Under the pieces are notes generated by a model. It was not told the DNA's origin and ran no database searches. It was given only the letters and a program-made list of their open reading frames with translations. This document shows positions 1,769 through 62,791 of a stretch of 64,000 nt of DNA, piece by piece (within the stretch, counting starts at the first letter, position 1; each line of letters begins with the position of its first letter). Position numbers and translations under genes: made by a program. Origin of the DNA: Corallococcus caeni (GTDB lineage: Bacteria > Myxococcota > Myxococcia > Myxococcales > Myxococcaceae); the NCBI RefSeq assembly GCF_036245865.1, contig NZ_BTTW01000008.1:160396-224395 (forward strand), in the 5' to 3' direction.

Positions 1769-4339
1769 ATGGCGGCTCCTCCCTCTTCCTCGTATGGCTT
1801 CGACACGCTTCCCTGCGCTCCGGCCGACTCCCGGTCGGAGACGGTGGCGGGCGTGGCGCGTCCGTCCGTCGGCGCCTTCCCGGAGTGGGAGCCGCCTCCC
1901 CACTTCGACGGCTACCAGGTGCTCCGGTGCGTGGGCCGCGGAACCATGGGGCAGGTCTTCCTCGCGCACGACACGGTGCTGGACCGGCCAGTGGCGCTCA
2001 AGCTCCTCACCGCGGGGGGGGCGGACGCGGCGGAGCGTGAGCGGCTCCTGGTTGAGGCGCGCGCCGTCGCGAGGCTCCAGCACCCGAACGTCGTCACCCT
2101 CTACCGCGTGGGCGAGGTGGAGGGGCGGCCGTACCTCGCCTGTGAGTTCGTACGGGGGCATGGCCTGGACGCGCTGCCGCTGCCGCTGCCCGCGGCCCAG
2201 GTGGTGAAGATTGGCCTCGACCTGGCGCGTGGCCTCGCCGCGGCGCACCGCCGGGGCGTGCTGCACCGGGACCTGAAGCCCGCCAACGCCATCCTCGCGG
2301 ACTCGGGGGAGGTGAAGCTGCTCGACTTCGGCCTGGCGAAGCTGGTGGAGGCCGGGTCCGACCCCGCGCTCACGGACGACTCAAGCCTGGTGGGCACGCC
2401 GGCGTACATGGCGCCCGAGCTGTGGCGGGGCGAGCCGGCGTCGGTCCAGTCCGACATCTATTCGCTCGGGGCGCTCCTCTATCACCTGTGCTCGGGGCGG
2501 CCGCCCCACGTGGGGGCCACCCTCCATGCCCTGGTGACCCAGGTGCTACGCGAGGCGCCCTCGCCCCTGGAGGGCGTGGAGCGCGCGCTGGCGGAGCCCA
2601 TCCTCCGCTGCCTCCGCAAGACGCCCGGCGAGCGGTTCCCCCTGGCGGACGCGCTGTGCGAGGTGTTGGAAGGGCTGTCGCCCGAGCGCCGGCACCTGGC
2701 GCTGCCCGAGGGAAACCCCTACCGCGGGTTGCAGTCCTTCGAAGCGCAGCACCGCGCGCTGTTCTTCGGCCGCGACGCGGAGATGCGTGCGCTGCTCGAG
2801 CGCTTGCGCACCGAGCCGTTCCTCCTGGTCGCCGGCACCTCGGGCCTGGGCAAGTCCTCGCTCTGCAGCGCGGGAGTCCTCCCCCGGGTGAGGGAAGGGG
2901 CCCTCGACGGAAGCGGACGAGGCGGCGGAGGACGTGTCTGGGCGGTCGCCACTCTCACCCCCGGCAAGCGTCCCCTGCGGGCCCTGGCCGCCGCGATGGC
3001 GCAGCACCTCAAGGAGGACGAGGAGGCCCTCGCGCTGCGGCTGGGCGGCGAGTGGCGGGACGTCACCCGGGAGCTGCGCCGCCGTGCCCGCCAGGGTGCG
3101 CCGCTCTGCGTCTTCCTGGACCAGCTGGAGGAACTCGTCACCCTCAGCGCACCGGACGAGGCGCGGCGGATGGCGGAGGTGCTCGAGGACCTCGCGGTGC
3201 CGGGGCCGGGACTGCGCGTGCTCGCAACCTGCCGCGCTGACTTCATCGCGAGGCTCGCTTCGCTGCCGGGCATGGGAGACTCCATCAACCGGGGACTCTT
3301 CCTGCTGAGGCCGCTGTCACCCGAAGGCCTCCGCGCCGCCGTGGTGGGCCCCGCTCGCGCCATGGGTGTGGAGTTCGAGTCGGACGCCATGGTGGAGGAG
3401 TTCGTGGAGGCGGCGTCCCGCGCCGAGGGTGCGCTGCCCCTCCTCCAGTTCGCCCTGGCCGAGCTGTGGGAGGCCCGCGACACCGGCCGGCGCGTCATCA
3501 CCGCGACGGCGCTGACGGCCGTGGGCGGCGTGGTGGGCGCGCTGGCCCGGCACGCGGACGCGGTCGTGGCGCACCTGCCCCCGGAGCATCGCACCGCCGC
3601 CCGCCGCCAGCTGCTCGCGCTGGTGACGCTGGAGGGCACGCGCGCCCGGCGCACCGAGGCGGAGCTGCTCGACGGCACCCCCCAGGCCAGGGCCGCCCTG
3701 GCGGCGCTCGTCCGGGGACGGCTGCTCACGGTGGGGGAGGCACCCGAGGGGGCCATGTACGAAGTCACCCACGAGGCGCTCATCCAGTCCTGGCCGCTCC
3801 TGCGCCAGTGGCTGAAGGAGGACGCGGAGCTGCGCGTGCTCCGGGAGCGGCTCGCGGTGGCCGCCGCCGAGTGGGAGCGGCTGGGCCGCCGGCGGGAGGC
3901 CGTCTGGGGGCCACGCCAGCTCGCGGAAGCGGCCCTGCTGCCGACGTCGGAGCTGCCGGAGCGGGAGCGGGACTTCGTCGCGGCCAGCCATCAGGTCATC
4001 CACCGCGGACGGGTGGTGCGCGTGGGCCTCTCGCTCTGCGGACTCCTGATGCTCAGCGTGGTGCTGGCCGGCGTGCGCTACCGCGGCCAGGTCCGGGAGC
4101 TCGCGCGGGCCCAGCTGGCTGAAAGGCAGCACCAGACCTCCAGGCGCGACGAGCTGCTGTCGCGCCTGGCCGCCCACGATATGGAGGGGGACGGCAGCGA
4201 GGCGCGGGTCCTTGGCCGGACGCCGGTGTCCGTCCCCCAGCTCGCGCCGGGACACTACGTGCTCACCCCCGCGCCCCTGCACCCCGTGAAGGGCGGCGCG
4301 TCCTTCATCACCCGCTTCGAGACGACCTTCGGCGAATAG
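1769..4339 (+). CDS. Ser/Thr protein kinase fused to a STAND/AAA+ NTPase domain, with a transmembrane segment near the C-terminus
   Basis: The 856-aa protein has a Hanks kinase N-terminus (GxGxxG, HRDLKPAN, DFG, APE). A P-loop NTPase follows (GTSGLGKSS). Later there is a hydrophobic helix (VGLSLCGLLMLSVVLAGV) and a C-terminal region. Confidence 0.85.
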   Translation: MAAPPSSSYGFDTLPCAPADSRSETVAGVARPSVGAFPEWEPPPHFDGYQVLRCVGRGTMGQVFLAHDTVLDRPVALKLLTAGGADAAERERLLVEARAVARLQHPNVVTLYRVGEVEGRPYLACEFVRGHGLDALPLPLPAAQVVKIGLDLARGLAAAHRRGVLHRDLKPANAILADSGEVKLLDFGLAKLVEAGSDPALTDDSSLVGTPAYMAPELWRGEPASVQSDIYSLGALLYHLCSGRPPHVGATLHALVTQVLREAPSPLEGVERALAEPILRCLRKTPGERFPLADALCEVLEGLSPERRHLALPEGNPYRGLQSFEAQHRALFFGRDAEMRALLERLRTEPFLLVAGTSGLGKSSLCSAGVLPRVREGALDGSGRGGGGRVWAVATLTPGKRPLRALAAAMAQHLKEDEEALALRLGGEWRDVTRELRRRARQGAPLCVFLDQLEELVTLSAPDEARRMAEVLEDLAVPGPGLRVLATCRADFIARLASLPGMGDSINRGLFLLRPLSPEGLRAAVVGPARAMGVEFESDAMVEEFVEAASRAEGALPLLQFALAELWEARDTGRRVITATALTAVGGVVGALARHADAVVAHLPPEHRTAARRQLLALVTLEGTRARRTEAELLDGTPQARAALAALVRGRLLTVGEAPEGAMYEVTHEALIQSWPLLRQWLKEDAELRVLRERLAVAAAEWERLGRRREAVWGPRQLAEAALLPTSELPERERDFVAASHQVIHRGRVVRVGLSLCGLLMLSVVLAGVRYRGQVRELARAQLAERQHQTSRRDELLSRLAAHDMEGDGSEARVLGRTPVSVPQLAPGHYVLTPAPLHPVKGGASFITRFETTFGE

Positions 4340-45221: not shown

Positions 45222-45842
45222 TCATTGGGGCGAATAGGTGTGGGTCAGGTCGATGACCAGGGACTCCACGATGGGCGGAAACGCGAGCTCGATGTGGCCC
45301 CGGTTCAGATCCGCGCGGGTGACCTGGTAGGAGGTTCCGCCGAACTCGTCATCGAAGGTGAAGTCATCGTTGTCGAAGATGGAGATCTCGATGGGGTGCA
45401 GGAGGAGGTTGGACGTGATGACCTCACAGCTGCCCGAGCGCCATTCGGGCTCCCAGCTCTCGTCCTCGGCGGTGCGGGTGCGCTCCGGAGCGGAGGGGCA
45501 GCGCATCTCCACGACGACGTCGGGAGGGGAGCCGTCGGAATCCCAGTCCTCGCCGTTGTCCGGATCGACGTCCACGATGAAGGCCCGGCGGGGCTGCACC
45601 CGCGTCCGCATCACGCCCGCGTAACAGGCCCGGGTATCGAGCCGACAGACATTGCCGTCGGGACAGCTCTCACAGAGGGCGCCGCTGGAGCCGCAGAGGG
45701 CGTCGCCGAGGTCGAGGACGCACACGTTGCTCACGGAGCAGCAGCCGTTCGCGCAGCTCTCCGGAGTGCACTCGGGCTCACCGCAGGCCGGGAGGAAGAG
45801 GGCGCACGTCAGGGCCATCAGGAGCAGGCAGGGCGTTTTCAT
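45222..45842 (-). CDS. Cys-rich lipoprotein (paralogue A)
   Basis: The start is the internal ATG (MKTPCLLLMALTCALFLPACG) of track ORF 45222..45920. It is paralogous to the 50338..51018 product. Confidence 0.6.
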   Translation of the reverse strand: MKTPCLLLMALTCALFLPACGEPECTPESCANGCCSVSNVCVLDLGDALCGSSGALCESCPDGNVCRLDTRACYAGVMRTRVQPRRAFIVDVDPDNGEDWDSDGSPPDVVVEMRCPSAPERTRTAEDESWEPEWRSGSCEVITSNLLLHPIEISIFDNDDFTFDDEFGGTSYQVTRADLNRGHIELAFPPIVESLVIDLTHTYSPQ

Positions 45843-48700: not shown

Positions 48701-50068
48701 CTATGCCGAGGGTGACCACCAGCCGGAAGTGTCCGGAAGGGAGACCACCCGCTCCTCCAAGGCTTCGACACAATCCGGATGCCTGCCTTCAGTCTGGCGG
48801 AGTGCTTCCGCGAGCGCCTCCATCCGACTCCACTCCTGTTCTTTGAACGTGTGGCTGCGGATGACGCTTGGGATGGGGGCGTCATTCTCCTCCAGCCCCC
48901 ATCGTGCCCGCTCACGTTCCAGTTGGGTTCCCCGTAGCAACATGAGGGGAAACGCCTTGAGCACGGGCACTTGCCGACGGAGGCAGAAGTCGACCGTTTG
49001 TCGAAAGGACTCCAACGTCTGCTCGGGCAGCCCGAAGATGATGGAAACCTCGAAAGGGATGCCGCGCGCGTGGAGCTTGCGGACTCCTTCCACCACCTTC
49101 TCGAGATGATTCACGCGCTCCACGGCGCGTGCCTCCTTCTCGTGGATGGTCTGCAGGCCAAACTCAAGCCGGACCGCGAGCCCTTCGCAGGCGTCGAGGA
49201 ACTCATCATCCAACGTCGAGAAGTGGCACTGCAAAGACAGCCGTCCGCGATAGTCAAGCCGCTGGAAGGTTCGCAGCACCGCCAGCGCGTGATCCCCGAG
49301 ATTGAAGAGCGGATCCAGCACGGCGATGTCGTTCACTCCCGAGCGCACGAACAGCCCAATCTCTTCCTCAAGCCGAGCCATGGGGAGGTCACGGCGACGC
49401 AACCGGCTGCCGGCCTCCCGGTGCTGGCAGAACGAGCAGCGGAAGGGACACCCGCGCTGGGTTTCCCACCGGATGAACCGTTGCTCCCCTGAAAGTTCAA
49501 TCACGTCTTCGAGGAAGGGGGACGCAAGCGTCTCCAGCTTCGCCTGTGCTTGGACGCCAGCATCCAACTGGCCAGCCCAATGGACTCCTGGAAACCGGAT
49601 TCGATCGGACGTGGCGGCAATCGCCACCATGGCCTCTTCGCCATAACCCCGGACGAATCCATCCGCTTCAGGGTAGAGCTGCTCAAGGCCCGGTCCCGCG
49701 TAGGAGACCTGGGGCCCTCCGAGGATGATACGCCCCGCGAATCCGCTCCGACGCAGCGCCCCCAGAAGCTTCTTCACCACCCGGTCGTTCCACACGTAGA
49801 CGCCAAGGCCCAAGTCTACGTCCCGAGCCTCAAGTCCCCGTGCACCTTCAAGCACGCTCCACAGGATGTGCTCCTCACTGAAGTCAGAGCGATTGATGGC
49901 AAACGAGAACGCTCGCACGTCGACGTTCGCCTTTCGCAGTGCCGCGACGATGGAGGCATGTCCCAGGGGGAGGCGAGGGTCTTTGTCGCGCGTCCAATCA
50001 ATCGAGACCAGAATGACCCGCCGTGGCTGAGGTGGGACAGAAATGACCTCGGAGCTCCGACTGGACAT
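48701..50068 (-). CDS. B12-binding-domain radical SAM protein
   Basis: The 455-aa protein has an N-terminal B12-binding-like domain (RVILVSIDW...). It carries the CPFRCSFC (Cx3Cx2C) radical SAM cluster motif. Confidence 0.8.
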   Translation of the reverse strand: MSSRSSEVISVPPQPRRVILVSIDWTRDKDPRLPLGHASIVAALRKANVDVRAFSFAINRSDFSEEHILWSVLEGARGLEARDVDLGLGVYVWNDRVVKKLLGALRRSGFAGRIILGGPQVSYAGPGLEQLYPEADGFVRGYGEEAMVAIAATSDRIRFPGVHWAGQLDAGVQAQAKLETLASPFLEDVIELSGEQRFIRWETQRGCPFRCSFCQHREAGSRLRRRDLPMARLEEEIGLFVRSGVNDIAVLDPLFNLGDHALAVLRTFQRLDYRGRLSLQCHFSTLDDEFLDACEGLAVRLEFGLQTIHEKEARAVERVNHLEKVVEGVRKLHARGIPFEVSIIFGLPEQTLESFRQTVDFCLRRQVPVLKAFPLMLLRGTQLERERARWGLEENDAPIPSVIRSHTFKEQEWSRMEALAEALRQTEGRHPDCVEALEERVVSLPDTSGWWSPSA

Positions 50069-50256
50069 TTGCTCCCCCAGAAACGGCTCGCGTGGACTGT
50101 TCTGCGGTGCCGATGACTCCGCTCTCTCCGGACGAAAAGGGCCGCGGAAGATTCAACCGCAAGGAGAAGGGCTGGTGAGCCCTCTTATCCAAGTGGAGGA
50201 GATGGTTCTGACCGATTTCACTTCGCCTGTGCATCCCCCATGAGGAGTAGGAACCG

Positions 50257-50310
50257 GATACGAAAACGCCGCCCCACTTCCGATGGACCGGAAGTGGGCG
50301 GCGATGACAC
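50257..50310. repeat. Palindromic repeat element, copy Y (15-16 bp inverted repeat CGCCGCCCCACTTCCG/CGGAAGTGGGCGGCG)
   Basis: It lies downstream of the minus-strand lipoprotein gene. It is about 80% identical by eye to the element at 59708..59768. Confidence 0.55.
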
Positions 50311-50337
50311 TGCTTGGGACCTCGGCGCGGTGACCGG

Positions 50338-51018
50338 CTATTCGGCGTAGTAGGTGGTGACCTGGAAGGCCACGGACATCAACGCACTGGAACCCGTGAG
50401 CTCCACGACGCCACGGTCGATGTCGGAGCGGGTCATCTGGTACTGCGCCGACGCAATCGGGTCGTCGAAGATGGCGTCAACATCAATGACGGTGAACTGG
50501 ATGGGGGCCGAAAGCAGATCGGTACTGAGGACGTCGCATGAGCCCTTCGTCCAGGTGGGGGTGAAGCTCTCAACTTCCTCCGAAGGGGGGACGGCGGCTG
50601 GCGTGTTGGGGCACGACAGCTGAATCACGACATCCGGCGGCGAGCCATCAACGTCCCAGTCGCTGTTGTCAGCGGGATCCAGCGGCGCGATCTGCGCACG
50701 AAGGGGCTGGATCTTCGTGCGGATGGTGGGGGTGTAGCACTGCTGCTTGGAAGGGTGGCACATCATCCCGGTTGTGCACTTGGAGCAGGTGCTGCCGTTA
50801 GGACCGCATGCGTCGGCGGTGCGAGTCATGACGCACTTGTTGGTGGTTGGGTCGCAGCAGCCTTCACAGCTCTCCGCAGTACAAAGCTCGGTGAGCGGAG
50901 GCGGGTCATCCGTGATGGGGTCGGGGCCGCCTGGGCTGAGGTCCTCGGGCCCACATGCGGCAAGCAACAAGAAGGACGCCAAGCCAAGGCAAGTAAGGAT
51001 TCGATGGGTGATTTTCAT
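50338..51018 (-). CDS. Cys-rich lipoprotein (paralogue B)
   Basis: The 226-aa protein has the lipobox LLLAACG. It shares CxxGCC, a DWDxDGSPPDVV block and C-terminal similarity with the 45222..45842 product. Confidence 0.65.
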   Translation of the reverse strand: MKITHRILTCLGLASFLLLAACGPEDLSPGGPDPITDDPPPLTELCTAESCEGCCDPTTNKCVMTRTADACGPNGSTCSKCTTGMMCHPSKQQCYTPTIRTKIQPLRAQIAPLDPADNSDWDVDGSPPDVVIQLSCPNTPAAVPPSEEVESFTPTWTKGSCDVLSTDLLSAPIQFTVIDVDAIFDDPIASAQYQMTRSDIDRGVVELTGSSALMSVAFQVTTYYAE

Positions 51019-51024
51019 TGTCTT

Positions 51025-52782
51025 TTAGTTGAGTTGAAGCACGAGAACGCGGGTACTTTTGTCCATCCGCACTTCGGCCGTTGACATCCTGATCACAGGA
51101 ACGCTCGCAACCTGGGTGCGCCGTCCTCCTGGCGTGGCCGCGAGAACGATGGGCGCGGGGGTTGTAGATGCGAGCGCAGTGACGGTTTGAGGTTCGGCAT
51201 AGCCAACGAGGAAGAGTTCGCCAGTGGCTCGTACACGGTGAACCTCGATTCCGTCTGGCAGGTTCCCGTAGGTCGGAGTGTTGGCGTTGTAGGTTGGAAT
51301 CGAATCCATCCGAAGGAAGGCGTAGCGACCTCTCGGAAGCTGAGCGATCCGCGATCCTCGCTCGGATTCTGACGCAGGCACGACCTGGTGCTGCTGGCGC
51401 ACAGCCCTGATCTGTGTACCTGGAGCCATGGGCACGAAAGCGGAAGGTGGCTGCTCGATGGGACGCACATCCGTCATTGGTGGTGATCCCTTGCCGCTTT
51501 CAGGTCGCTGCGAGACCACGGCAATCCCCCCTGCGATCACCCCTCCCGCGATGACGACCGCGAGCCGACTGGAGCCCGAGCGACTCGGTGTAGCAGGCGG
51601 TGCTGGGACTTGGATGACAGGAGAGACCGTGATGACTGGAGAGACCGTGACAGTCGCGGTGCTCGGCGCTGGCGTTGAGCCAGCCGGCACGGATGGCGCG
51701 GGCTCAGGAGGTTTCGGGGGGCTGTGCGACGTCGGCGCAGTCTGCACCGTGGCGTTGGCGCTTGCGTCGGATCGTGTGGAGGGTGGCGGTGTCGGTTGGC
51801 CCGCGGTTCGAGGGTACGAGAGCTGGGCGCTGGCCGCGCCAAATTGTTTCCGCAGGTCGGGGAAGAACTTGTGGCAGTCGATTCCGCCATAGCAGCGAAG
51901 CCCCTTGCTACCTCTCAGATTGGCGACCCTGCTGAAGAGATTTGGATTGCGGGCCTCAATCACGGCGTCTTCTTCTCCGTAGAACCCCCAGAGGATGTCG
52001 ACGTCCTTGTGTCGATCGACGTCAATGGTTGCGAGGGTCTGGGTGAAGACGTCATCCCACCCGCCGTACCCGATCACGACCAGCGTGTGGTCTTGAAGAA
52101 TCTGGATCAACTCCGCGGAGACGTGTCTGCGCTCGCGACCAAGCTGGATACCCGTGTGTAACGTAGGCGAACGGTGCCAGTAGCCGTGAAGATGGATGAT
52201 GTGTGTGGATTTGGATGAGGCAGGGACTGTCTGCCCAAACGGGATGTCACTGGCCACGATGGTGCGATGGAAATCGCCACCGGCCACCTTCACCGATGCC
52301 GAGATGAGGGGATCAAAGTTCGTGGTCAAGACAGGACCAAACGTCTCAGCTCTTTCCACCAGCAATCTACCGAGGTGCTCCGTCGCGGGCGGCAAGGCCC
52401 ATCCGCCATGGTCCAGATCCAACTGGTCGTCAGTCGCCGCTCCATCGCGTTTGCGGTCCACCCGTGCGCGAAGCACCGCCTCTCGAACAACCCTCTCGGA
52501 GACATCCTTATCGCAATGGCCTTGTACGAAGCGCATGGCCCATTGGTATTTGTTTTCTTTGGTGTACTCGCGCTCCGTGTCGAATTTCGCTTGGAATCCG
52601 GCCGGAACGTGCTCGCGGATGAGATCCAGCATTGCATTCACCCCAGGAACCTGAGGGGCGTCAGCTCGTTCCTGCGTCGACAAGGGAGAGCCCACTAGAA
52701 ACGCGATTTTCCGGTTTTTAGAGGCAGCGATGACAGCGTTTGGGAGCGCATCCTTCGGATGCAGGAACGGGTAGGAACTCAT
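51025..52782 (-). CDS. SIR2-like (SIR2_2 family) protein with a Pro/Thr-rich linker, one TM helix and a C-terminal domain of unknown function
   Basis: The N-terminal roughly 300 aa carry KIAFLVGSPLS (Rossmann), TTNFDPLI (catalytic Asn) and IIHLHGYWH (catalytic His). A TM helix (LAVVIAGGVIAGGIAVV) and a roughly 150-aa C-terminal domain follow. GC content is lower than in the surrounding DNA. Confidence 0.75.
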   Translation of the reverse strand: MSSYPFLHPKDALPNAVIAASKNRKIAFLVGSPLSTQERADAPQVPGVNAMLDLIREHVPAGFQAKFDTEREYTKENKYQWAMRFVQGHCDKDVSERVVREAVLRARVDRKRDGAATDDQLDLDHGGWALPPATEHLGRLLVERAETFGPVLTTNFDPLISASVKVAGGDFHRTIVASDIPFGQTVPASSKSTHIIHLHGYWHRSPTLHTGIQLGRERRHVSAELIQILQDHTLVVIGYGGWDDVFTQTLATIDVDRHKDVDILWGFYGEEDAVIEARNPNLFSRVANLRGSKGLRCYGGIDCHKFFPDLRKQFGAASAQLSYPRTAGQPTPPPSTRSDASANATVQTAPTSHSPPKPPEPAPSVPAGSTPAPSTATVTVSPVITVSPVIQVPAPPATPSRSGSSRLAVVIAGGVIAGGIAVVSQRPESGKGSPPMTDVRPIEQPPSAFVPMAPGTQIRAVRQQHQVVPASESERGSRIAQLPRGRYAFLRMDSIPTYNANTPTYGNLPDGIEVHRVRATGELFLVGYAEPQTVTALASTTPAPIVLAATPGGRRTQVASVPVIRMSTAEVRMDKSTRVLVLQLN

Positions 52783-52822
52783 CGGGAGACGAACGCTATC
52801 AGAAGCGCAGGCGGGTTCGAGT

Positions 52823-54388
52823 TCAGGCGGCCCGCTCGCGTTGACCGCCCTGTTCCTCCTCTTGGAGCGCCAAGGTCTTACGGTACTCCGCCGCCTCCGC
52901 GAGCTGGGTCAGCTCGAACTCCCCGTGGTGCTTGCGCACGGCCTGGGCGATCTCATCCAAGCTGACGCGGAAGAACTCCTTGCGCTCATTGATGCGGTTG
53001 ACGCGCCTGTTCGCGAACGTCCTGTGGAGTGCGTTCTCCAGGGCCGGGGCGTCCGAGGTCCGGATGATGGCGTGGACATCGAACTCGAAGGGCACGGATG
53101 CATCCCCCAGCTCGTCGATGCGGTCCTGGGGCACGAGCCTCCTCGTCATTCCCAGCTTGAACACACCTTCCCCAAACGAGCCGATGTTGGAGATGACGTA
53201 GACGTGCCCCGTCCGCGTGAGCTGGGCCTGGGAGATGGCTCGCTGCTTCTCCAGGTCTTCGGCCACGCGGCGCTCCAGCTCGGCGATGCGTTCCAGCAAC
53301 TTCTGCTGCTCGGAGCCCTTTGCCCGATCGTAGTCCGCCTTCGCCTTCGCCAGGGCCTCGGCGTCACGCTTCGACTCGCGCTCCGCCTCCAGCTTCGCCT
53401 TCTCCAGCTCGCGCTGGGCGGCCTCCTCCTCTCGCATCTGCTCCCGGATGCGGCGCTGTTCGTCCCGCTCCTGTTGCACCTTCTCCGAGTACTCATACGC
53501 GAGCATCAGCTCCTCGACCTTGAGCTTGACGTAGCGCCTGTCGATGACACACCGCTGTATCTCCACAAGGCCATTTATGGCGGCAGCTGCCTTCTCGATG
53601 CGCGTCTCCATTGCCTTCACGTTCTTGTACGAAACCTTCGCGACACACGCATCCGCTTCGCCATTGAAGGCCCGGAGCATCAGCTTCAAGGTACGGTCCG
53701 TCTGCTTCTTGCCCTCCGCCTTGCTGCCATTGACCTCCCACTGGAGAGAGCACGTGGCGGCTTCCTTGTTCTTCAGCATCTGTTTCTGAGAATCGCGGAG
53801 CCTCTCCAGGCGGTCCTCGTATTCCTTCACGGACGAGAGGGCGTACACCGGCTTGTAGAAGCCAAAGGAGAGCAGGACCTCCTCTTCCTCAAGGGCCTTC
53901 AGCTCGGCCTTCAACCGGGCGAGGCTTGACTCCAGGCTGGTTCGCTCGGTGTTCGCCTGCTTTCGCCGCGCTTCCGCCTCCTCCATGGCGCGTGTCGCGC
54001 TCTGGGTCGTCTTCGCCGTCTCTTCACGGATCCGGCTCAGCTCCGCCTTCGCCCGGCTCTGTTCGGCCGCGATGGCTTGCTCCACGTCCGCCTTGGCCCG
54101 GGCCAGCTGGGTTTCCACCCGCTTCTGCTCCGCCGCCAGCGCGTTGTCCGCCTCGCTCCTGGCTTTCGCCAACTCTTCACGGACCCGCTTCTGCTCCGCG
54201 GCAAGCGCAGCGTCCGCGTCCGTGCGCGCCCGCGTCAACTCCTCGGCCACCCGCCGCCGTTCGGCCTCCAGGTCCAGGATGGGCTTGAAGCGCTCCTGGA
54301 CGGCCTTGAGCCGACTTCGTGTCTGGAACCACAACCCGAGGAGCAACAGACTCAATACGCCCAGTCCAACGGCAATCATCGTGGTCAT
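52823..54388 (-). CDS. DUF4041-like coiled-coil protein with a C-terminal T5orf172 (GIY-YIG-like, MUG113) domain and an N-terminal TM helix
   Basis: The start is the internal ATG (MTTMIAVGLGVLSLLLLGLWF) of track ORF 52823..54496, preceded by AGGAGA. It has 22-aa coiled-coil repeats. The C-terminus reads GHVYVISN...FKLGMTRR...DRIDEL...PFEFDVHAII...LHRTFANRRVN...EFF. Confidence 0.8.
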   Translation of the reverse strand: MTTMIAVGLGVLSLLLLGLWFQTRSRLKAVQERFKPILDLEAERRRVAEELTRARTDADAALAAEQKRVREELAKARSEADNALAAEQKRVETQLARAKADVEQAIAAEQSRAKAELSRIREETAKTTQSATRAMEEAEARRKQANTERTSLESSLARLKAELKALEEEEVLLSFGFYKPVYALSSVKEYEDRLERLRDSQKQMLKNKEAATCSLQWEVNGSKAEGKKQTDRTLKLMLRAFNGEADACVAKVSYKNVKAMETRIEKAAAAINGLVEIQRCVIDRRYVKLKVEELMLAYEYSEKVQQERDEQRRIREQMREEEAAQRELEKAKLEAERESKRDAEALAKAKADYDRAKGSEQQKLLERIAELERRVAEDLEKQRAISQAQLTRTGHVYVISNIGSFGEGVFKLGMTRRLVPQDRIDELGDASVPFEFDVHAIIRTSDAPALENALHRTFANRRVNRINERKEFFRVSLDEIAQAVRKHHGEFELTQLAEAAEYRKTLALQEEEQGGQRERAA

Positions 54389-54401
54389 GGTTGTCTCCTG
54401 T

Positions 54402-57400
54402 TCAGGCGCTGGCGGCGCGCATCTGGTTCTCCGCCGCGGGCTCCTCGCGCACCACGGCCGGCAGCTCCGCCGCCTCTTCCCGAAGCACCTCTTCAACGTG
54501 CGCGACGATCCGGGCGACCTCTTCCGATGGCGAGCGGAACCAGTCCGTGGACCAGATGCGGTGCAGCCTCCATCCCAGGCCCTTCAGCACCTGATCCCGG
54601 AGGCGGTCCCGGTCCCGGGCGGAACGTGACGAGTGATACCTCTCTCCGTCACACTCGACGCCAAGGACGTAACGGCCCGCTTGCCGAGGATGCCGCAGGG
54701 CCATGTCGATGAAATAACCCGCGACGCCCACCTGCGGGACCACTTCGAATCCCCGCGCGACGAGCGCCTTCGCGACGGCAATCTCGAAGTCGGAGTCGGG
54801 TGGCCGACCGCTGCCCACGCCGTGCGCCACCTTCTCTCCCTTGGCTTCGGACAGGTATCGCTGCAGGACGCGCATCCCGCGGGGACTGCTTTCCTGGACC
54901 TTGAGCTCCGACGGGTCGAAGGACGCGAACACCGTCAGCGCGCACCGCGCCCGCGTGAAGAGGACGTTCAGCCGGCGGTACCCGTCCGCTTGATTGATGG
55001 GCCCGAAGTTCATCCGGAAGCGCTCGTTCTTGTCGGGACCGAACGTGACCGACACGAAGATGGCGTCGCGCTCGTCGCCCTGGACGTTCTCCAGGTTCTT
55101 CACGTCGAAGGGCATGGGGGACTTCTCCCACTTCGCCAGGAAGGCCCGGAGGGCCGCGTCGTTCTTCTCCTCGGCAGTCACCAGGTCGTCGATGAGCTCT
55201 CGCTGCTTCGAGTTCAACGTGACGACCAGCAGGCTCTGCTCCGGGCGCGTACGCGCATGCGCCTTCACCGCCGCCAGCACCTCGCGGGCCTCGGGAACGT
55301 TCCGGTTGGACTCGTACAATCCCTGCTCCACGCGGTGGAAGTGGAGGCCCAGCCCGTCCAACTGCTCGCCGGGCGCGGGGAAGGTGATGAGGTCGCCGTT
55401 GTAGAACTCGCGGTTGCTGAAGGCGATGAGCGAGGGGTGGCGGGACCGGTAATGCCAACGCAACATGCGCATGGGAAACCGCTCCGCCGCCGCCGTGAGG
55501 ATGCTCTCCGAATCCTCCAGGAAGGACGGCCCCTGGACCTCGTCTCCCTCCGCGCCCTCGGTGTCGGCGTCCTCCTGCTCCACCTGCGCGAAGAAGCTGG
55601 TGGGAGGAAGCTGCTCCGGGTCGCCCACCACCACCAGTTGCCGACCTCGGGCAATGGCTCCCAGCGCGTCCTCGGGACGCATCTGGCTGGCCTCGTCCAT
55701 CACGACCAGGTCGAAGGTCAGCTGCCCGGCGGGCAGGTATTGGGCGACGGACTGCGGCCCCATCATGAAGCAGGGCATCAACGTCTGGAGTGCACTGCCG
55801 GCGCGTGCCACCAGCTCGCGAATGGGGAGGTGCCGCTGCTTCTTGCCCAGCTCGTGCCGCAGGAGATGCGTCTCCGTCATGCCCGCAACCTTTGCCGACG
55901 ACACGCCGGGAGGGACCGGACGCTGACTGAGTTGACGCGCCAGGTATCGGCCCTGCTTTTCGATGCAATGCGTGTCCAGGCGGGCGAACTCCTCACGCTG
56001 GGAGGCGTGAACCGCGCCCGTGAATTGATCGAGCTCCGGCTGGTCTCGCAGGATGGCTTCCGCCAGGGAGCGGAAGAAGACGGCGTCAAAGGCCGCGACC
56101 AACTGCTCCGGCTCCAGGCCGGGACGGGTGTCGACGCGCTCCAGGAACCCCAGGGTGCTCCGCGCTCGCGCGACGGCGCGCCGCTGCCGTTGGTACGCGC
56201 ACCAGGCCGGGAGCGTCGCGGACTGGCTTCGAGCCTGGCGCAGGCGCATGACCGTCGCCTGGAGCGGCTTCTCGGCGGCGGGTTCCTCCCAGGTGCCGGG
56301 CGCCATCCTTCCCAGCTCCCAGGCCTGATTGGCGGACTGGCTATAGGCGGTGAGCGCTACCTCCACGTCATGCGTGGCGGTGAGCAGGTCCGCGTGCCTC
56401 CGTGGCGTGTCCTTCCTCAGCAGCCACTCCGCCAGCCCCTCGGGCAGTGGCGCCGCGAAGAGGACGTCGACATGGCGCAGGGCGCTTCGAGGGCCCGCGA
56501 GGGACGTCTTCCGACCCCGGTATGCGATCCCTGGCAAGCCCGCCGCCGGGGCATGCGCTTCCAGCCGGTTCTCGGCTTCGCAGGCCTCGCGCACCCGGCG
56601 CAGCTGTCCCTGGAGCTGGGAAAGGGTCAAGGACGGCAGGGCATCTCCCTTTCGTGCCCAGTTCAGGACCTCACCCAGGTGTTTCAACAAGGCATCGAGG
56701 CTGTCCTGGGCCTTGCCGCAGGGTTCGGTGTTCCAGGGGGCGTGCGGCAGACCCATGCGCGTCGCGGCTTCCTGCACGGTAGTGCTCACGTCGCGGGCCT
56801 GGAGCAACTCGTCACCCCACACGCGGGTCTTCGCCAGGGCCTCCTGCCAATGGCTCGCCGGCCGCTCCAACACCGCGCGGCGGAGTTCCGCCCCTCGCTC
56901 TCCCAGCGAAAGGAGCAATGCATCGACGTTCCGGTAGGCGTCCACCCACGAAAGAATCCGGTCGAAACGCGTATCGACTCCCTGGAAGCGGGCGCCCAGG
57001 GTCGCTTTCAAGGTCGCGTCCTCGTGGAATCGCTCCCGCGCCGCGTGGTGCGCCAGCAGGTCGGTGTAACCCTGGAGCAACACGGGCCGCGTCGGACGGA
57101 CGCCGTGGGACATGGCCTGGAAGTCCCGCCTCGCCGCACGCCATGCACCCGAGAGCCAGGGGATGAAGGGCGCGGTCGAAACCGCGACGGCATGTGCCTT
57201 GAGCGTCGTGAGCGGAGGAACGAGTTCGGGCATGAAGCGCACCGCGAGCGCTCGCGCCTGGTCCTTCAGCTCCGAGCAGGTGCTGCCGGCCTTCCGAAGC
57301 AACTCCTCGGCCTCGCGCTCGACCCAACGCGCGTCCCGCCACTCCAGGGCGGCGTCATCCAGGACCGCCATCGCTTCGACGACGCGGACAAACGTCTGGA

Positions 57401-59606
57401 GCTGCTGCGGCGTCCAGAGCGTGACGTCCACCTCCAGGCATGAGGCCACTGCAGCCATGAACCGGCGTCCCTGTGCCAGGGCCCGGGCTGCTGCATCCAC
57501 CGCTTCATGCGCGCGTGTCAGCGTGATGAGCGTGGTGTCTGGCGAAAGCAGGCGCAGGGCCGTGTCGAGGATGGCTTGCGCGTCACGCACGGTGGGTACG
57601 GTCAGGTCCTCCTGGGCACGCCAGCCCGCCTCCAGCCCCGCCCACCGCGCCTGGACCGACTCGATGGCATCGAGCAGGGCGCGCAATCCCTCGCGCTGCG
57701 TGGCATCAAGCAGGGTAGGGATCAGCTCCGGAGGAGCCCCCTCCGGAAGGCGTGGAAGGACCCGGACGTTTGAGACCAGGGCATCCGCCGCGAGCGCGCT
57801 CGACCTGGGGGTGATGCCAGTTCGGACTGTGAACGCAGCCAGCGCCTTCTCCAGGAGCAGCGTGGACTCTTCCCAGGCCGCGATCCGTTGAACGAGTGTC
57901 TGGCGGTCCTTGTCCGTCAGCGCGTCGTTCGTCACCCCCGCAAAGGGGTGGGCGCAGAGGACGGGAGCGACGCGGCGAACGTCCCCCAACTGCGCAGCGA
58001 GGCCCCGAACCGTGTCGCGGACCTCCGCCAGCGCAGTGGAGGACATGCTCTCCGCGCCCTCGAAGCGCAGGCCCTCCAACTCGACGACTGCTTCTCCCAG
58101 CTCCGCTTCAGTGCGACTGACCTTCCAGAACACGTCGTGCGGTGACATGCCGAGCGCCCCGAATGGCTTGTGCATCCGCTCGGTATGCGCGCGCAGGATG
58201 CCCGCGGCGCTCGAGACCTGTTCGGTGAGCGGCCGGGGAGCGCTCGCGCCTGCGTCCAGGTTGAGCCTTCGCCGCAGGTCCTCCATGAACTGCTGCTTCT
58301 GGGTCTTGTGGCTGTGCAGCTCCAGGCAGAACTCACCCAGCCCCGCCTGCTGGAGGCGGCGTGAGACGACCTCCAGCGCCGCCAGCTTCTGCGTGACGAA
58401 CAGCACGGTCTTGCCCGCCGCCAGCGCAGCTCCGATGAGGTTGGTGATGGTCTGTGACTTCCCGGTGCCGGGCGGTCCCTGCACCACCAGGTTCTCACCC
58501 CGGAGCACGTCCACCAGCACGCTGTGCTGACTGCTGTCCGCGTCCGTGATGAGGGGTGGAGGATTCAGCTCCGGCGAGTCCAGGTCATAGACCTCGCTTC
58601 GGCGTTCCCGGAGGCCGCCTCCGCCTCCTGCGCCTCCTCCCGGTTCATTCGCCTGCGCCTGTCCTCCCATCAGCGTGCGAACGAGCGGGTTGGCCAGCGG
58701 GGAACCGTTCTGCGGCCATCGGGTTGGCTCCAGGTCCCGCCACATCAGGAGCCGCCCGAAGGACAGCAGCGTCAGCGTGACCTGCCGCTCCAGCCCCCAT
58801 CCGGGGCGCAGGCCCTTGAGCAGCGCCGTCACCTTGTCGAAGTACGCCTCCAGGCCTTCCTCGGCGGAGAAGGCCGGCAGCGCGATGCCGAACTCCTGCC
58901 TCAGCTTCTCCTGGAGCGTGAGGTTCAGCTCGATGGACTCGCCTTCGTTGTAGTCGACCTCGTAAGCGTGGACCTGGGTGTCCGGGTGGGCCTGGCCGCG
59001 CTTGAGGCTCACCGGCATGAGCACGAGCGGTGCGCTGCGCGGCTTCTCCTGCCGGGTATCACCAGACTCGTACCAGCGCAGGAACCCGAAGACGAAGTGG
59101 AGCAGGTTGGCTCCGGTCTCCTGGATGGCTGTCTGCGCGAGCCCCTGGAGGCGGTGCAGGTGGCCCTCCAGATCCTCCGGGAAGTACAACGTCTGCAGGT
59201 GGCGGTCCTGATGCTTGCGAGGAGGGGTGCCGCTCTCCGTGGGGGCCGCCTTGGGCAGCTCATACCGGGTGTCGATGCCCAGGCGCTTCGCCTGTTGAAG
59301 CAGCAGCTTCTGCCGGGCGTCCTTGCTGGGGACCTCCTCGGTCATCGAGAACACCACGGTCGCGGCGGCGGGGTCGAAGTCCTCCTGTTCCTCGGAGTCC
59401 TGCTCCGGTGGCGTCACCGGGAGGAACGTGAGCGCGCGGTGGTTGCTCAGCCGCTCGAAGACGACACCTGGAAGTTCATCCACGATTCGCAGCGACGTCC
59501 TGGCCGTGTGCTTGAAGTGGAGGAGCCGGTTGGTTGCGCTCAAATCCAGCAACCGGTTGCGTTGCCGCTGAAGCTCTTTCAGCATGACCGAGTCGTGCGG
59601 AGTCAT
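54402..59606 (-). CDS. Giant DUF4011-family SF1 (Upf1-like) helicase with a C-terminal DUF559 / PD-(D/E)xK endonuclease-like domain
   Basis: The 1734-aa protein has the N-terminal DUF4011 signature LxxLxxRLLDLSATNRLLHFK, Walker A VQGPPGTGKSQTI, motif II VVMDEASQM and motif VVVGDPEQLPP. The C-terminus (ECDGERYHSS...DRDRLRDQVLKGLGWRLHRIW) is Vsr/DUF559-like. Confidence 0.85.
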   Translation of the reverse strand: MTPHDSVMLKELQRQRNRLLDLSATNRLLHFKHTARTSLRIVDELPGVVFERLSNHRALTFLPVTPPEQDSEEQEDFDPAAATVVFSMTEEVPSKDARQKLLLQQAKRLGIDTRYELPKAAPTESGTPPRKHQDRHLQTLYFPEDLEGHLHRLQGLAQTAIQETGANLLHFVFGFLRWYESGDTRQEKPRSAPLVLMPVSLKRGQAHPDTQVHAYEVDYNEGESIELNLTLQEKLRQEFGIALPAFSAEEGLEAYFDKVTALLKGLRPGWGLERQVTLTLLSFGRLLMWRDLEPTRWPQNGSPLANPLVRTLMGGQAQANEPGGGAGGGGGLRERRSEVYDLDSPELNPPPLITDADSSQHSVLVDVLRGENLVVQGPPGTGKSQTITNLIGAALAAGKTVLFVTQKLAALEVVSRRLQQAGLGEFCLELHSHKTQKQQFMEDLRRRLNLDAGASAPRPLTEQVSSAAGILRAHTERMHKPFGALGMSPHDVFWKVSRTEAELGEAVVELEGLRFEGAESMSSTALAEVRDTVRGLAAQLGDVRRVAPVLCAHPFAGVTNDALTDKDRQTLVQRIAAWEESTLLLEKALAAFTVRTGITPRSSALAADALVSNVRVLPRLPEGAPPELIPTLLDATQREGLRALLDAIESVQARWAGLEAGWRAQEDLTVPTVRDAQAILDTALRLLSPDTTLITLTRAHEAVDAAARALAQGRRFMAAVASCLEVDVTLWTPQQLQTFVRVVEAMAVLDDAALEWRDARWVEREAEELLRKAGSTCSELKDQARALAVRFMPELVPPLTTLKAHAVAVSTAPFIPWLSGAWRAARRDFQAMSHGVRPTRPVLLQGYTDLLAHHAARERFHEDATLKATLGARFQGVDTRFDRILSWVDAYRNVDALLLSLGERGAELRRAVLERPASHWQEALAKTRVWGDELLQARDVSTTVQEAATRMGLPHAPWNTEPCGKAQDSLDALLKHLGEVLNWARKGDALPSLTLSQLQGQLRRVREACEAENRLEAHAPAAGLPGIAYRGRKTSLAGPRSALRHVDVLFAAPLPEGLAEWLLRKDTPRRHADLLTATHDVEVALTAYSQSANQAWELGRMAPGTWEEPAAEKPLQATVMRLRQARSQSATLPAWCAYQRQRRAVARARSTLGFLERVDTRPGLEPEQLVAAFDAVFFRSLAEAILRDQPELDQFTGAVHASQREEFARLDTHCIEKQGRYLARQLSQRPVPPGVSSAKVAGMTETHLLRHELGKKQRHLPIRELVARAGSALQTLMPCFMMGPQSVAQYLPAGQLTFDLVVMDEASQMRPEDALGAIARGRQLVVVGDPEQLPPTSFFAQVEQEDADTEGAEGDEVQGPSFLEDSESILTAAAERFPMRMLRWHYRSRHPSLIAFSNREFYNGDLITFPAPGEQLDGLGLHFHRVEQGLYESNRNVPEAREVLAAVKAHARTRPEQSLLVVTLNSKQRELIDDLVTAEEKNDAALRAFLAKWEKSPMPFDVKNLENVQGDERDAIFVSVTFGPDKNERFRMNFGPINQADGYRRLNVLFTRARCALTVFASFDPSELKVQESSPRGMRVLQRYLSEAKGEKVAHGVGSGRPPDSDFEIAVAKALVARGFEVVPQVGVAGYFIDMALRHPRQAGRYVLGVECDGERYHSSRSARDRDRLRDQVLKGLGWRLHRIWSTDWFRSPSEEVARIVAHVEEVLREEAAELPAVVREEPAAENQMRAASA

Positions 59607-59707
59607 GAATGTCTTCGCCCCCCCGGGCCGTCATGGGTGGGACGACCTGGCACCCCAGGTTCTGGCCCATTCCCCACGAAAGGGACATCACCCGGAAGAG
59701 GGATGGA

Positions 59708-59768
59708 CAGCCCACGAAAACGCCGCCTCGCTTCCGGAGGACCGGAAACGGGCGGCGTTTGGCACTGC
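59708..59768. repeat. Palindromic repeat element, copy X; likely terminator of the ABC-F gene (10-bp inverted repeat AAACGCCGCC/GGCGGCGTTT around a sub-hairpin)
   Basis: It lies immediately downstream of the minus-strand ABC-F stop and upstream of the helicase gene. It is about 80% identical to copy Y at 50257..50310. Confidence 0.55.
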
Positions 59769-59787
59769 CTACGGATGTGACGAAGGA

Positions 59788-61386
59788 CTACCGGCGCTTC
59801 TGCGCCGCGTCCGCGTGCTTCTCCATGAACTCCGAATACGGGCCGTTGAAGTCGAGCACTTCCTTGCCCTGCTCCAGGCTCCAGATGCGGGTCGCGACCT
59901 CGGAGATGAGCTCCTGGTCGTGCGTCACGCAGATGACCGTGCCTTCGAACTTCGACAGGCCTTCCGCCAGCGCCGCGATGGACTCCAGGTCCAGGTGGTT
60001 CGTCGGCTCGTCGAGAATCAGCACGTTGTCCTGCATGATCATCAGCTTGGACAACAGCACGCGCACCGTCTCACCACCGGAGAGCGTGTCCGTGGGCTTC
60101 ATCCGCTCCTCACCCGAGAAGAGCATCCGGCCCAGCACGCCGGAGATCTCCTCGTTGGTCAGCTTCTCGCTGATCTCCCGGAGGTAGCCGAAGCACGTCG
60201 TGCCCTTGTGGATGACGCCGTGGTGGTCCTGCGGCAGGTAGCCCACCGTCGCCTGGTGACCCCAGGTGATGGTGCCCGCGTCCGGCTCCAGCTGCCCCGC
60301 CAGCATCTTCACCAGCGTGGACTTGCCCACCGCGTTGCGGCCGATGACGCAGATGCGCTCGCCCTTGCAGACCAGCCCCTTGAACGGCTTGATGACCGGC
60401 ACCCCGTCGAAGGACTTCTTCAGGCCCTCGAACATCAGCGTCTGCCGGCCGCTGACCACCTTCTGGTCGAACCGGATGAACGGCCGCGCGATGTTCGAGC
60501 GCTTCAGGTCCTCCGTCTTCAGCTTGTCGATCTGCTTGATGCGGCTCTGCACCTGCGACGCGCGCGTACCCGCGTGGAAGCGCGCCACGAAGTCCTGCAG
60601 CTGGGCGATCTTCTTCTTCTTCTCCGCCGTCTCGGACTCCACCCGGGTCCGCAGCTGCGACTTCTGCCGGACCATGTCGTCGTAACCACCCGTGTACTGG
60701 ATGATGGTCTCGTAATCGATGTCCGCGATGTGCGTGCAGATGGAGTTCAGGAAGTGCCGGTCGTGGCTGATGGTGATCAGCACGCCCTCGTAGGCATGGA
60801 GGAAGTTCTCCAGCCAGCGGATGGAGTCGATGTCCAGGTTGTTCGTGGGCTCGTCCAACAGCAGCCCTTCCGGCTTGCCGAACAGCGCCTGCGCGAGCAA
60901 CACGCGCAGCTTCAGGCCGCCGGTGAGCTGGCGCATGGGCTCTTCGTGGAAGGACTCCTCGATGCCAAGGCCCGCCAGCAGCGTGGCCGCGTCGCTCTCC
61001 GCGGAATAGCCGTCCTCCTCCGCGATGACGCCTTCCAGCTCACCCAGCCGGTTGCCGTCCTCTTCCGTGATGTCGGCCTTGGCCAGGAGCTTGTTCTTCT
61101 CGTCCATGGCCGCCCACAGGTGGCGGTTGCCCATCAGCACCACGTCGATGACGCGGTCGTTCTCGTAGCGGAAGTGGTCCTGGCGCAGGATGCCCAGCTT
61201 CCGCGGGCGGATGATCTCGCCCATGTCCTGCTCCTCGTCACCCGCGAGGATCTTCATGAACGTGGACTTGCCGGCCCCGTTCGGACCGGTCAGGCCGTAG
61301 CGACGGCCCGGCGAGAAGGCGACGTTGACCTCCTCGAAAAGTTTCTTGGGCCCGTAGGCCTTGGAGACGTTGATGACGTTGAACAT
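59788..61386 (-). CDS. ABC-F family ATPase (two ABC domains, EttA/YbiT-like)
   Basis: The start is the internal ATG (MFNVINVSKAYG) of track ORF 59788..61803. It has two sets of Walker A/B and LSGG signature motifs (GPNGAGKST, GRNAVGKST). Confidence 0.85.
   Translation of the reverse strand: MFNVINVSKAYGPKKLFEEVNVAFSPGRRYGLTGPNGAGKSTFMKILAGDEEQDMGEIIRPRKLGILRQDHFRYENDRVIDVVLMGNRHLWAAMDEKNKLLAKADITEEDGNRLGELEGVIAEEDGYSAESDAATLLAGLGIEESFHEEPMRQLTGGLKLRVLLAQALFGKPEGLLLDEPTNNLDIDSIRWLENFLHAYEGVLITISHDRHFLNSICTHIADIDYETIIQYTGGYDDMVRQKSQLRTRVESETAEKKKKIAQLQDFVARFHAGTRASQVQSRIKQIDKLKTEDLKRSNIARPFIRFDQKVVSGRQTLMFEGLKKSFDGVPVIKPFKGLVCKGERICVIGRNAVGKSTLVKMLAGQLEPDAGTITWGHQATVGYLPQDHHGVIHKGTTCFGYLREISEKLTNEEISGVLGRMLFSGEERMKPTDTLSGGETVRVLLSKLMIMQDNVLILDEPTNHLDLESIAALAEGLSKFEGTVICVTHDQELISEVATRIWSLEQGKEVLDFNGPYSEFMEKHADAAQKRR

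Positions 61387-61612: not shown

Positions 61613-62791
<1,179 letters not shown>

Follow-up and report, generated by a model that had tools for sequence, protein, structure and literature searches.

Two similar GC-rich palindromes, here termed X and Y, bracket a block of candidate defence genes in the 64-kb stretch of Corallococcus caeni DNA analysed here (the window). Do they belong to a genome-wide repeat family, do they mark the ends of a mobile element, or were they left when the block was inserted? An earlier note on this DNA had proposed either a REP-like genome-wide element or direct repeats from insertion of the block. X and Y are an ordinary insertion scar rather than a genome-wide repeat family. 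With a probability of roughly 75%, they represent the terminator module of an ABC-F ATPase gene, duplicated around a block that was inserted at a hotspot by recombination with an illegitimate join, not by an integrase or a transposase.

X and Y are copies of a longer unit

X (59714–59768) and Y (50260–50313) are direct repeats in the same orientation, and their best local alignment is 82% identical (45 of 55 columns, one gap). The alignment score of 63 is about 16 standard deviations above the scores of 200 shuffles (21.7 ± 2.6, maximum 31). Blastn within the window reports a core of 44 nt (86%, E 7e-6), and a repeat search of the window reports the pair as repeat family D12 (72 nt at 74%). 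The 64-kb window has no third copy, as judged among others by blastn and an nhmmer profile. A run of 14 nt at the U-tract, GGCGGCGTTTTCGT, is identical in X and Y.

The sequences quoted in the earlier note are present, and its estimate of about 80% identity agrees with the alignment. However, Y ends with CACTGC at 50308–50313 rather than at 50310, and the homologous unit is not 55 bp but about 130–145 nt long, from the last ABC-F codons through to a CAGAAC motif. A profile made from island-less strains only aligns with X at 59829–59659 (E 5.5e-40) and with Y, which was not in the training set, at 50347–50195 (E 5.3e-26); the Y alignment begins within the part of the profile that represents the 3′ end of ABC-F. 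The similarity of X and Y reaches about 90 nt past the stem on both sides, and the homology of the adjoining flank F1 is significant alone, with the stem disregarded. In the X unit (59659–59790, minus strand), the ABC-F stop codon is separated by a spacer of about 20 nt from the hairpin and its U-tract, after which some 55 nt of conserved sequence extend to a terminal CAGAAC. It is 95–99% identical to the single-copy unit of other Corallococcus genomes. The Y unit (50205–50347, minus strand) is a diverged second copy of the module, which overlaps the last codons and the stop codon of a lipoprotein gene and abuts the ancestral flank.

Both hairpins resemble intrinsic terminators

The predicted terminator core of X (59714–59758, minus strand) consists of a stem-loop at 59721–59758 and a U-tract, UUUUCGU, at 59714–59720. 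The predicted core of Y (50260–50303, minus strand) has its stem-loop at 50267–50303 and its U-tract at 50260–50266, and UUUUCGU is directly 3′ of both window stems on the coding strand. X folds with −44.8 kcal/mol on the minus strand (z −6.1) and −36.6 on the plus strand, and Y folds with −30.1 kcal/mol (z −3.9, minus strand); z-scores from −3.9 to −6.1 bear out the description of both as long GC hairpins. The RNAalifold consensus over 13 alleles is a GC-rich stem of 17 bp interrupted by a single bulge. Wobble pairs are tolerated on the coding strand only; one stem pair is G-C in X, G·U in the Y of strain locus L006, and A-U in the window Y. Relative to X, the Y stem is preserved via G-C to A-U and U·G to C-G changes.

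The X hairpin lies about 20–30 nt past the ABC-F stop (59788) and the Y hairpin about 25 nt past the lipoprotein stop (50338), both on the minus strand. Because the coding strand has, 20–25 nt beyond a stop codon, a GC-rich stem-loop and then UUUUCGU, both X and Y look like Rho-independent terminators of minus-strand genes. The earlier note had placed each element correctly downstream of a minus-strand gene, and its claim that each works as a terminator is supported as a prediction by the stem-loop, the U-tract, and the position after the stop. As in known Rho-independent terminators, the predicted structures lie tens of nucleotides past the stop on the coding strand, and compensatory and wobble changes preserve the stem on that strand only. 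Unlike usual terminators of this class, the ABC-F terminator is accompanied by about 55 nt of extra conserved downstream sequence, and the Y copy, a displaced duplicate, is in decay among related strains. In particular, the U-tract of Y is degraded to GGUUCGU in L006, half of the Y stem is lost in L055, and L008, L010, and L012 have no Y. Y, decayed or missing in these strains, is dispensable, and its predicted terminator role may therefore be incidental.

Both hairpins were missed by a simple promoter/terminator scanner because of the bulge in the stem. No tRNA was found in the window. A second conserved hairpin past the U-tract, hp2 (CATCCCTC..GGGGGATG), was considered and dropped, as RNAalifold gives four weak pairs and no covariation. 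An ECF- or sigma-54-type promoter at the CAGAAC region was also rejected, the spacing being unsuitable as judged by eye.

Genes of the block and its neighbours

The four genes of the block lie on the minus strand. The first (54402–59606) encodes a 1734-aa DUF4011-helicase-MTES_1575 nuclease, Hhe/PDC-S37-like (PADLOC PDC-S37, E 0; Hhe, 8e-278; Pfam). The second (52823–54388) encodes a 521-aa protein of PD-Lambda-1/SNIPE type with DUF4041 and T5orf172 (PADLOC PD-Lambda-1, 7e-155; Pfam). The third (51025–52782) encodes a SIR2_2-domain protein (Pfam SIR2_2, 1.4e-7; SIR2 effector families matched weakly in PADLOC). The fourth (50338–51018) encodes lipoprotein B, a 226-aa protein that has a lipobox and is paralogous (38%) to the native lipoprotein at 45231–45770. 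The bracketing of lipoprotein B and a three-gene candidate defence locus by X and Y, as first described, is confirmed in the order lipoprotein-SIR2-PD-Lambda-1-helicase. Lipoprotein B accompanies the SIR2 gene in every island-bearing strain examined. Exact-protein look-ups of lipoprotein B and P0123 gave no match.

On the X side, the block is preceded by a conserved gene (59788–61386, minus strand; Pfam domains) for a 532-aa ABC-F ATPase that has orthologues throughout Myxococcaceae; X is its predicted terminator. On the Y side, the ancestral intergenic flank F1-F2 (50069–50204, minus strand), which comes directly after the single unit in island-less strains, leads into a radical SAM/B12-binding gene (48701–50068, minus strand; PDC-M51A-like, PADLOC PDC-M51A 1.3e-151; Pfam). 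This gene, missing from L008, L010, L012, and L014, constitutes the hotspot's next variable module. No integrase, recombinase, or transposase domain was found with Pfam and PADLOC in the four block proteins or their neighbours.

Empty sites define an insertion at a defence-gene hotspot

In the island-less loci L007, L009, L011, and L050, ABC-F is followed by one unit and then by F1. In blastn comparisons, Y plus F1 of the window is colinear with the unit plus F1 of L007 (75%, E 2e-20) and of L050 (80%, E 2e-29). Since the single copy of the island-less strains is followed directly by the DNA found beyond Y in the window, the block and one copy of the unit constitute an insertion. The suggestion that the direct repeats arose through insertion of the block was thus essentially right. 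The island-less sites may be ancestral, or else they may be deletions through recombination of X with Y. L050 is a hybrid, with an X-type hairpin and then a Y-type flank, the structure expected of a crossover between X and Y.

The single-copy module, an X-type terminator plus about 55 nt downstream, is present in every Corallococcus genome examined. The slot past ABC-F holds different, mostly anti-phage, gene sets among strains, including TIR-SIR2 and RT (L001), Shedu (L050), PD-Lambda-1 and DUF3800 (L025), a Kelch protein (C. carmarthensis, L053), and a 145-aa gene with radical SAM and AAA_21-methyltransferase genes (L007). This slot is a defence-gene hotspot in Corallococcus. Inserts join at three positions, which are after the U-tract (L030 and L053), within the downstream segment (L035), and after CAGAAC elsewhere.

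Hotspots of defence islands flanked by core genes have been described for the pan-genomes of E. coli and Pseudomonas. As in those, a fixed slot by a housekeeping gene holds strain-specific defence systems with no obvious mobile-element backbone. In contrast to those, the boundary here is set at the nucleotide level by a terminator module, which has itself been duplicated at least twice. Two other roles for the unit were rejected. It is not a cassette-boundary element between hotspot modules, as ABC-F and the lipoprotein gene are the only genes that it follows; nor is it an integron attC site or gene cassette, as there is no integrase and the unit is not repeated at the other module boundaries. 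The hotspot also holds a 59-nt fragment of ABC-F at another place, and a hypervariable patch lies exactly at Y.

Y and a second duplication in related strains

In L055 (C. interemptor), the architecture is the same as in the window, with Y reduced to a decayed remnant in which GAGCGCCGGT, from the end of ABC-F, and the right stem arm survive; the lipoprotein is only 69% identical. Three loci (L008, L012, and L013) have the block and no Y. A block without the repeats in relatives had been named in advance as evidence against insertion, and in the literal sense these loci are such cases; later replacement of the distal flank accounts for the arrangement. Y is old and has been retained unevenly among the strains.

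In C. carmarthensis (L053), two copies of the unit lie 2.7 kb apart around the Kelch gene. The distal copy includes the final 26 nt of ABC-F, and its spacer allele is a different one; the breakpoints therefore differ from those in the window. In particular, the L053 duplication begins at −26 relative to the ABC-F stop and reaches as far as the U-tract, and the window duplication extends from about −11 to CAGAAC. The L053 arrangement is an independent second duplication at ABC-F.

Alternative explanations

X and Y share with REP/BIME elements an imperfect GC-rich extragenic palindrome capable of terminator action, and two copies in one window could be chance neighbours from a dispersed family. 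REP elements, however, are dispersed and associated with RAYT. In a scan of 185,579 species genomes, a degenerate pattern that matches X, the window Y, and the L006 Y, and so allows for their divergence, was found at one locus per Corallococcus genome, always downstream of ABC-F; the Corallococcus sample was about 11 species genomes, two of them complete (9.7 and 10.1 Mb), and the scan, being exact matching to the pattern, passes over copies diverged well past about 20%. The nhmmer profile gave no additional copies in about 360 kb of window and comparison loci, the homology runs into ABC-F codons and non-palindromic flank, Rfam has no family that matches the hairpin unit, and Pfam detects no RAYT/IS200-IS605-type transposase in the window block. 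The dispersed family is accordingly rejected, and the genome-wide REP-like element of the earlier note is effectively refuted. Convergence of two unrelated terminators on GC-rich stems would account for the palindromes alone, as GCCGCC/GGCGGC stems are common at 70% G+C and the remaining matches to the pattern are single chance ones in unrelated taxa (Streptomyces, Novosphingobium, and others). But the similarity continues about 90 nt past the stem, in colinearity with the orthologous flank in strains that lack the island (E 5e-26 with the Y-untrained profile), and the alignment score far exceeds those of the shuffles; convergence has next to no probability.

Islands that target tRNA genes carry a copy of the 3′ end of their target. 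X and Y could likewise be attL/attR-type sites of an integrative island that targets the ABC-F 3′ end or terminator, its integrase being lost or supplied in trans. As in islands integrated at the 3′ ends of tRNA, tmRNA, or protein-coding genes, the flanking direct repeats correspond to the 3′ end of the target gene, which one of them overlaps, the proximal copy leaves the gene intact, and the empty sites of relatives are single-copy. The 14-nt identical run at the U-tract is readable as a recombination core, L050 resembles a crossover product exactly at this run, and different gene sets start at nearly one position past the unit. Unlike such islands, however, the block is densely coded and neither contains nor adjoins an integrase, recombinase, or transposase gene (Pfam and PADLOC). 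The repeats are 75–82% identical over about 140 nt with no clean shared core, and the 14-nt identity is interrupted in L006. Independent insertions do not share core and junctions; both the left and the right boundaries of the L053 duplication differ from those in the window, and the other inserts join at three different points. X and Y give no indication of a classical target-site duplication or att site, and we consider site-specific integration improbable.

Proposed origin of the duplication

We favour duplication of the ABC-F terminator module by an illegitimate join over att sites because the breakpoints of the C. carmarthensis duplication are different and an integrase is missing from the block. 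X would be the Rho-independent terminator of ABC-F, and the hotspot begins just past its module. In the lineage of the window, the four-gene block (Hhe-like helicase-nuclease, PD-Lambda-1/SNIPE, SIR2, and lipoprotein) occupies this slot. Incoming DNA of the form ABC-F-terminator-block probably recombined beside the resident terminator and was joined, illegitimately or through short homology, within the 3′ end of the resident ABC-F gene, possibly by homology-facilitated illegitimate recombination or a Campbell-like event. The proximal X would still terminate ABC-F, and the distal Y, to which the end of the lipoprotein gene is fused and which leads into the original F1-F2-radical SAM flank, would now serve as the terminator of the block. 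The terminators, the bracketing, and the insertion repeats of the earlier interpretation are retained in this proposal; its REP alternative and its 55-bp element, now a module of about 130–145 nt, are not.

In homology-facilitated illegitimate recombination, homology anchors the DNA at one end, and the other end is attached by an illegitimate join (PMC3240628). In our proposal, ABC-F homology would likewise anchor one end. Merodiploids generated by transformation are partial chromosome duplications (PMC3784515), and the two copies in L053 differ in their spacer allele, as expected if one of them is incoming DNA. Unlike these systems, the Corallococcus case is read from sequence scars alone. 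The module might also be a recurrent, integrase-independent landing pad, at which the highly conserved ABC-F and terminator sequence would hold incoming DNA while its other end joins the resident ABC-F 3′ end illegitimately; the module would be duplicated each time, and its copies would let the block be deleted or swapped. This fits two independent duplications, the 59-nt ABC-F fragment, the hypervariable patch at Y, and the crossover-like structure of L050, but we regard it as doubtful.

Implications

The analysis removes a false lead, as the locus holds neither a REP family nor a new mobile-element end. The two natural examples, with their different breakpoints, illustrate how defence blocks without an integrase may settle beside a housekeeping gene and leave its terminator intact. 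In addition, the boundary is now nucleotide-exact for a defence-gene hotspot, not described before, that lies downstream of the ABC-F/TGT genes of Corallococcus, and this boundary provides a practical anchor for mining the variable defence content of myxobacterial genomes.

Two predicted terminator hairpins flank the block

Hairpin copy X (59714-59768) lies between the genes for an ABC-F ATPase (59788-61386) and a DUF4011-helicase-MTES_1575 protein (54402-59606; PADLOC PDC-S37, E 0, and Hhe, 8e-278), both on the minus strand. The helicase gene belongs to a four-gene block that continues on that strand with genes for a DUF4041+T5orf172 protein (52823-54388; PADLOC PD-Lambda-1, 7e-155), a SIR2_2 protein (51025-52782), and lipoprotein 'B' (50338-51018). 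Copy Y (50260-50313) lies between the lipoprotein gene and the minus-strand gene for a radical SAM/B12 protein (48701-50068; PADLOC PDC-M51A, 1e-151). The TGT gene (61622-62791) is on the plus strand. The G+C content of the window is 70%, and the assemblies nearest to it are those of C. caeni NO1 (GCA_036245885.1) and run DRR510903.

The radical SAM/B12 gene, a match to a candidate defence family, varies in presence among strains and is only 83% identical to its allele at L007 (L numbers denote orthologous loci from other strains), versus 95% for ABC-F. The native lipoprotein 'A' (45231-45770) is a 38% paralogue of the island lipoprotein, and the C2-like protein directly after the ABC-F terminator in C. 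praedator-group strains (L014) is its probable orthologue.

Both palindromes described in an earlier note are present in the window as quoted there, in the same orientation, and both are predicted to form a long GC hairpin. In the best local alignment, X (59768-59714) pairs with Y (50313-50260) on the minus strand with 45 of 55 columns matching (82%) and one gap; the score is 63, versus 21.7 ± 2.6 (maximum 31) in 200 shuffles. Within the window, blastn finds a 44-nt core of 86% identity (E 7e-6), and a repeat search finds a 72-nt repeat at 74% (family D12). A 14-nt stretch at the U-tract is identical in the two copies. No third copy is present in the 64 kb.

On the minus (coding) strand, each copy starts 20-25 nt past a stop codon and consists of a stem-loop followed by UUUUCGU. 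The predicted fold of X is -44.8 kcal/mol on the minus strand versus -36.6 on the plus strand. RNAalifold of 13 distinct alleles gives a consensus stem of 17 bp with one bulged base and double changes at five stem pairs. One pair is G-C in X, G.U in the Y of L006, and A-U in the window Y; the adjoining pair is U.G in X and C-G in Y. The wobble pairs are compatible with sense RNA only, as expected for a Rho-independent terminator of the ABC-F or lipoprotein transcript. The hairpins match no Rfam family, and a tRNA search finds no tRNA. By every sequence criterion the element is predicted to be an intrinsic terminator, as the earlier note had proposed for both copies.

The unit is confined to the ABC-F locus

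The earlier note considered either a REP-like family or direct repeats left by insertion. A degenerate pattern, GCCGCCCNNNTCCN{4,10}GGAAGNGNGGCGGC, which covers X, the window Y, and the diverged L006 Y, was run against 185,579 species, each represented by a single genome. The scan yields 39 matches in all. Each matched Corallococcus genome (praedator, interemptor, sicarius, terminator, carmarthensis, two strains of exercitus, sp. RDP092CA, sp. CA053C, and the complete chromosomes of C. coralloides KYC2213 and C. exercitus SDU142) has a single matching stretch, in every case downstream of ABC-F; the other matches are single and from unrelated taxa. An nhmmer profile finds no further copies in the window or any fetched locus. 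The dispersed, multicopy occurrence that defines a REP-like element is thus not seen in the scanned genomes and loci, and that reading is wrong.

Island-less strains define the insertion

Orthologous loci were gathered via TGT and ABC-F proteins that are identical or nearly so, and by the pattern scan. L007, L009, and L011 (C. exiguus) and L050 (C. exercitus AB043A) lack the island and have ABC-F, a single unit, and F1, part of the flank between Y and the radical SAM gene (50069-50204), followed by other genes. Window 50323-50174, comprising Y and the following sequence, is colinear with this arrangement. Identity over Y and F1 is 75% to L007 (E 2e-20) and 80% to L050 (E 2e-29); over ABC-F and X it is 95-99%.

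A profile built from three island-less alleles (L007, L011, and L050), with Y kept out of training, matches X at 59829-59659 (E 5.5e-40) and Y at 50347-50195 (E 5.3e-26). The Y match starts at the last ABC-F codons, CGCCGAATAGCCGGT against cgctgaagcgccggtag. The repeated unit is therefore ~130-145 nt and spans the ABC-F 3' end, a spacer, the terminator, and ~55 nt to a CAGAAC motif. Compared with haplotypes that lack the island, the 9.3-kb block and one copy of the unit are inserted. The direct-repeat reading is therefore essentially right, since island-less sites hold a single unit with which Y is colinear, but the repeat is ~130-145 nt rather than 55 bp, and a dedicated recombinase is unsupported.

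The ~55 nt past the U-tract (59659-59713 and 50205-50259) are conserved at the same offset whichever genes come next, and end in CAGAAC or, in some haplotypes, CAAGAC. No conserved secondary structure is detected in this segment, a possible 3' UTR or promoter element. The lipoprotein stop codon apparently lies inside ABC-F-derived sequence (GAATAGCCGGT, 50338-50350, versus GAAGCGCCGGTAG in ABC-F).

A variable slot follows the unit

The slot directly past the unit is a defence hotspot whose gene content differs among strains. The same four-gene block follows the unit in L006, L008, L012, L013, L021, L023, L037, L046, L047, and L055. Elsewhere the unit is followed by PD-Lambda-1 and DUF3800 (L025); a 237-aa gene, a HATPase protein, IS66, a TIR-SIR2/ThsA-like protein, and a reverse transcriptase (L001); Shedu SduA (L050); a 145-aa gene, radical SAM, and an AAA_21-methyltransferase (L007, L009, and L011); a C2-like lipoprotein (L014); or a Kelch protein (L053). 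Insert junctions fall directly past the U-tract (L030 and L053), within the downstream segment (L035), or past CAGAAC (most others).

In L010 (C. exiguus GCA_012985225.1, 1731-5898), ABC-F is followed by another leader, common to L001, L025, and L051, and then by PD-Lambda-1, SIR2, and the lipoprotein. The 1734-aa helicase gene is absent there, so the helicase may be a separable module. A 59-nt ABC-F coding fragment from the Walker B region (window 59962-60020, 96.6% identical) adjoins the AAA_21-methyltransferase gene at its 3' end, within the hotspot, in L007 (4036-4094) and L009 (6429-6487) and is another ABC-F-derived scar.

Y is old and has been remodelled

L055 (C. interemptor) has the window's order of ABC-F, X, block, Y remnant, and radical SAM, with a lipoprotein 69% identical to that of the window. 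Its remnant (nhmmer, E 3.5e-10) retains GAGCGCCGGT (the counterpart of GAAGCGCCGGTAG at the ABC-F end), the stem's right arm (GCGAGGCGGTGTT), and both the downstream segment and F1; the left arm and loop are gone. The duplication is thus older than the divergence of these block alleles. At this junction (L055 10672-10692), the remnant begins 4 nt past the lipoprotein stop codon.

In L006, the U-tract of Y has decayed to GGTTCGT. L008, L010, L012, and L013 have the block without Y, because a pentapeptide-repeat or C2-like gene has taken the place of the distal flank. The window and L006 share 97-100% identity in the block and 92-98% in the radical SAM gene, but only 68-85% in the 280 nt of Y-F1-F2 (50060-50340 versus L006 21060-21330). 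This pattern indicates patchy recombination, seemingly a localized exchange or gene conversion, at Y; the partners were probably alleles of the terminator flank from other strains.

Origin of the two copies

The comparisons identify X as the conserved terminator module of ABC-F, normally present once, and Y as its paralogue, which runs straight into the ancestral flank; the block is inserted at a slot of variable content. L053 (C. carmarthensis CA043D, NZ_RAWE01000030.1) has a second duplication, with copies at 3209-3336 and 5903-5997, 2.7 kb apart, on either side of an 833-aa Kelch-repeat gene. The final 26 nt of ABC-F (GACGCGGCGGTCAAGCGCCGGTAGTC) stand ahead of the distal copy, which has a spacer allele that is unlike the proximal one and resembles window X; in the hairpin the two copies hardly differ. 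Each stops at or just past the U-tract. This duplication is independent of the window's and has different breakpoints.

The main rival holds that X and Y are att sites of site-specific recombination. The 14-nt identity at the U-tract fits this, as does L050, whose X-type hairpin runs into downstream sequence of the Y type, the hybrid expected from a crossover exactly there. The locus also resembles att sites of 3'-end-targeting islands in having flanking repeats and empty sites, which could be either ancestral or products of deletion between X and Y. However, it has neither an integrase nor a constant core.

Pfam and PADLOC find no integrase, recombinase, or transposase in the block. Because of this absence, the two events with different boundaries, the scattered junctions, and the differing L053 alleles, we favour a recombinational origin, the manner of which we infer. 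The incoming fragment would comprise ABC-F, its terminator, and the block. Homology in or upstream of ABC-F would hold one end in place, and an illegitimate join within the 3' end of the resident ABC-F would attach the other, leaving the resident terminator downstream of the insert. Selection for an intact ABC-F terminator would set the seemingly shared boundary. Merodiploids, that is, partial chromosome duplications, are reported as a product of transformation (PMC3784515).

A literature search finds nothing specific on a myxobacterial hotspot of this type. Defence hotspots flanked by core genes are described in enterobacteria and pseudomonads, and the Corallococcus locus as a whole behaves alike. 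Overall, the case is a neat but unexceptional example of genome archaeology.
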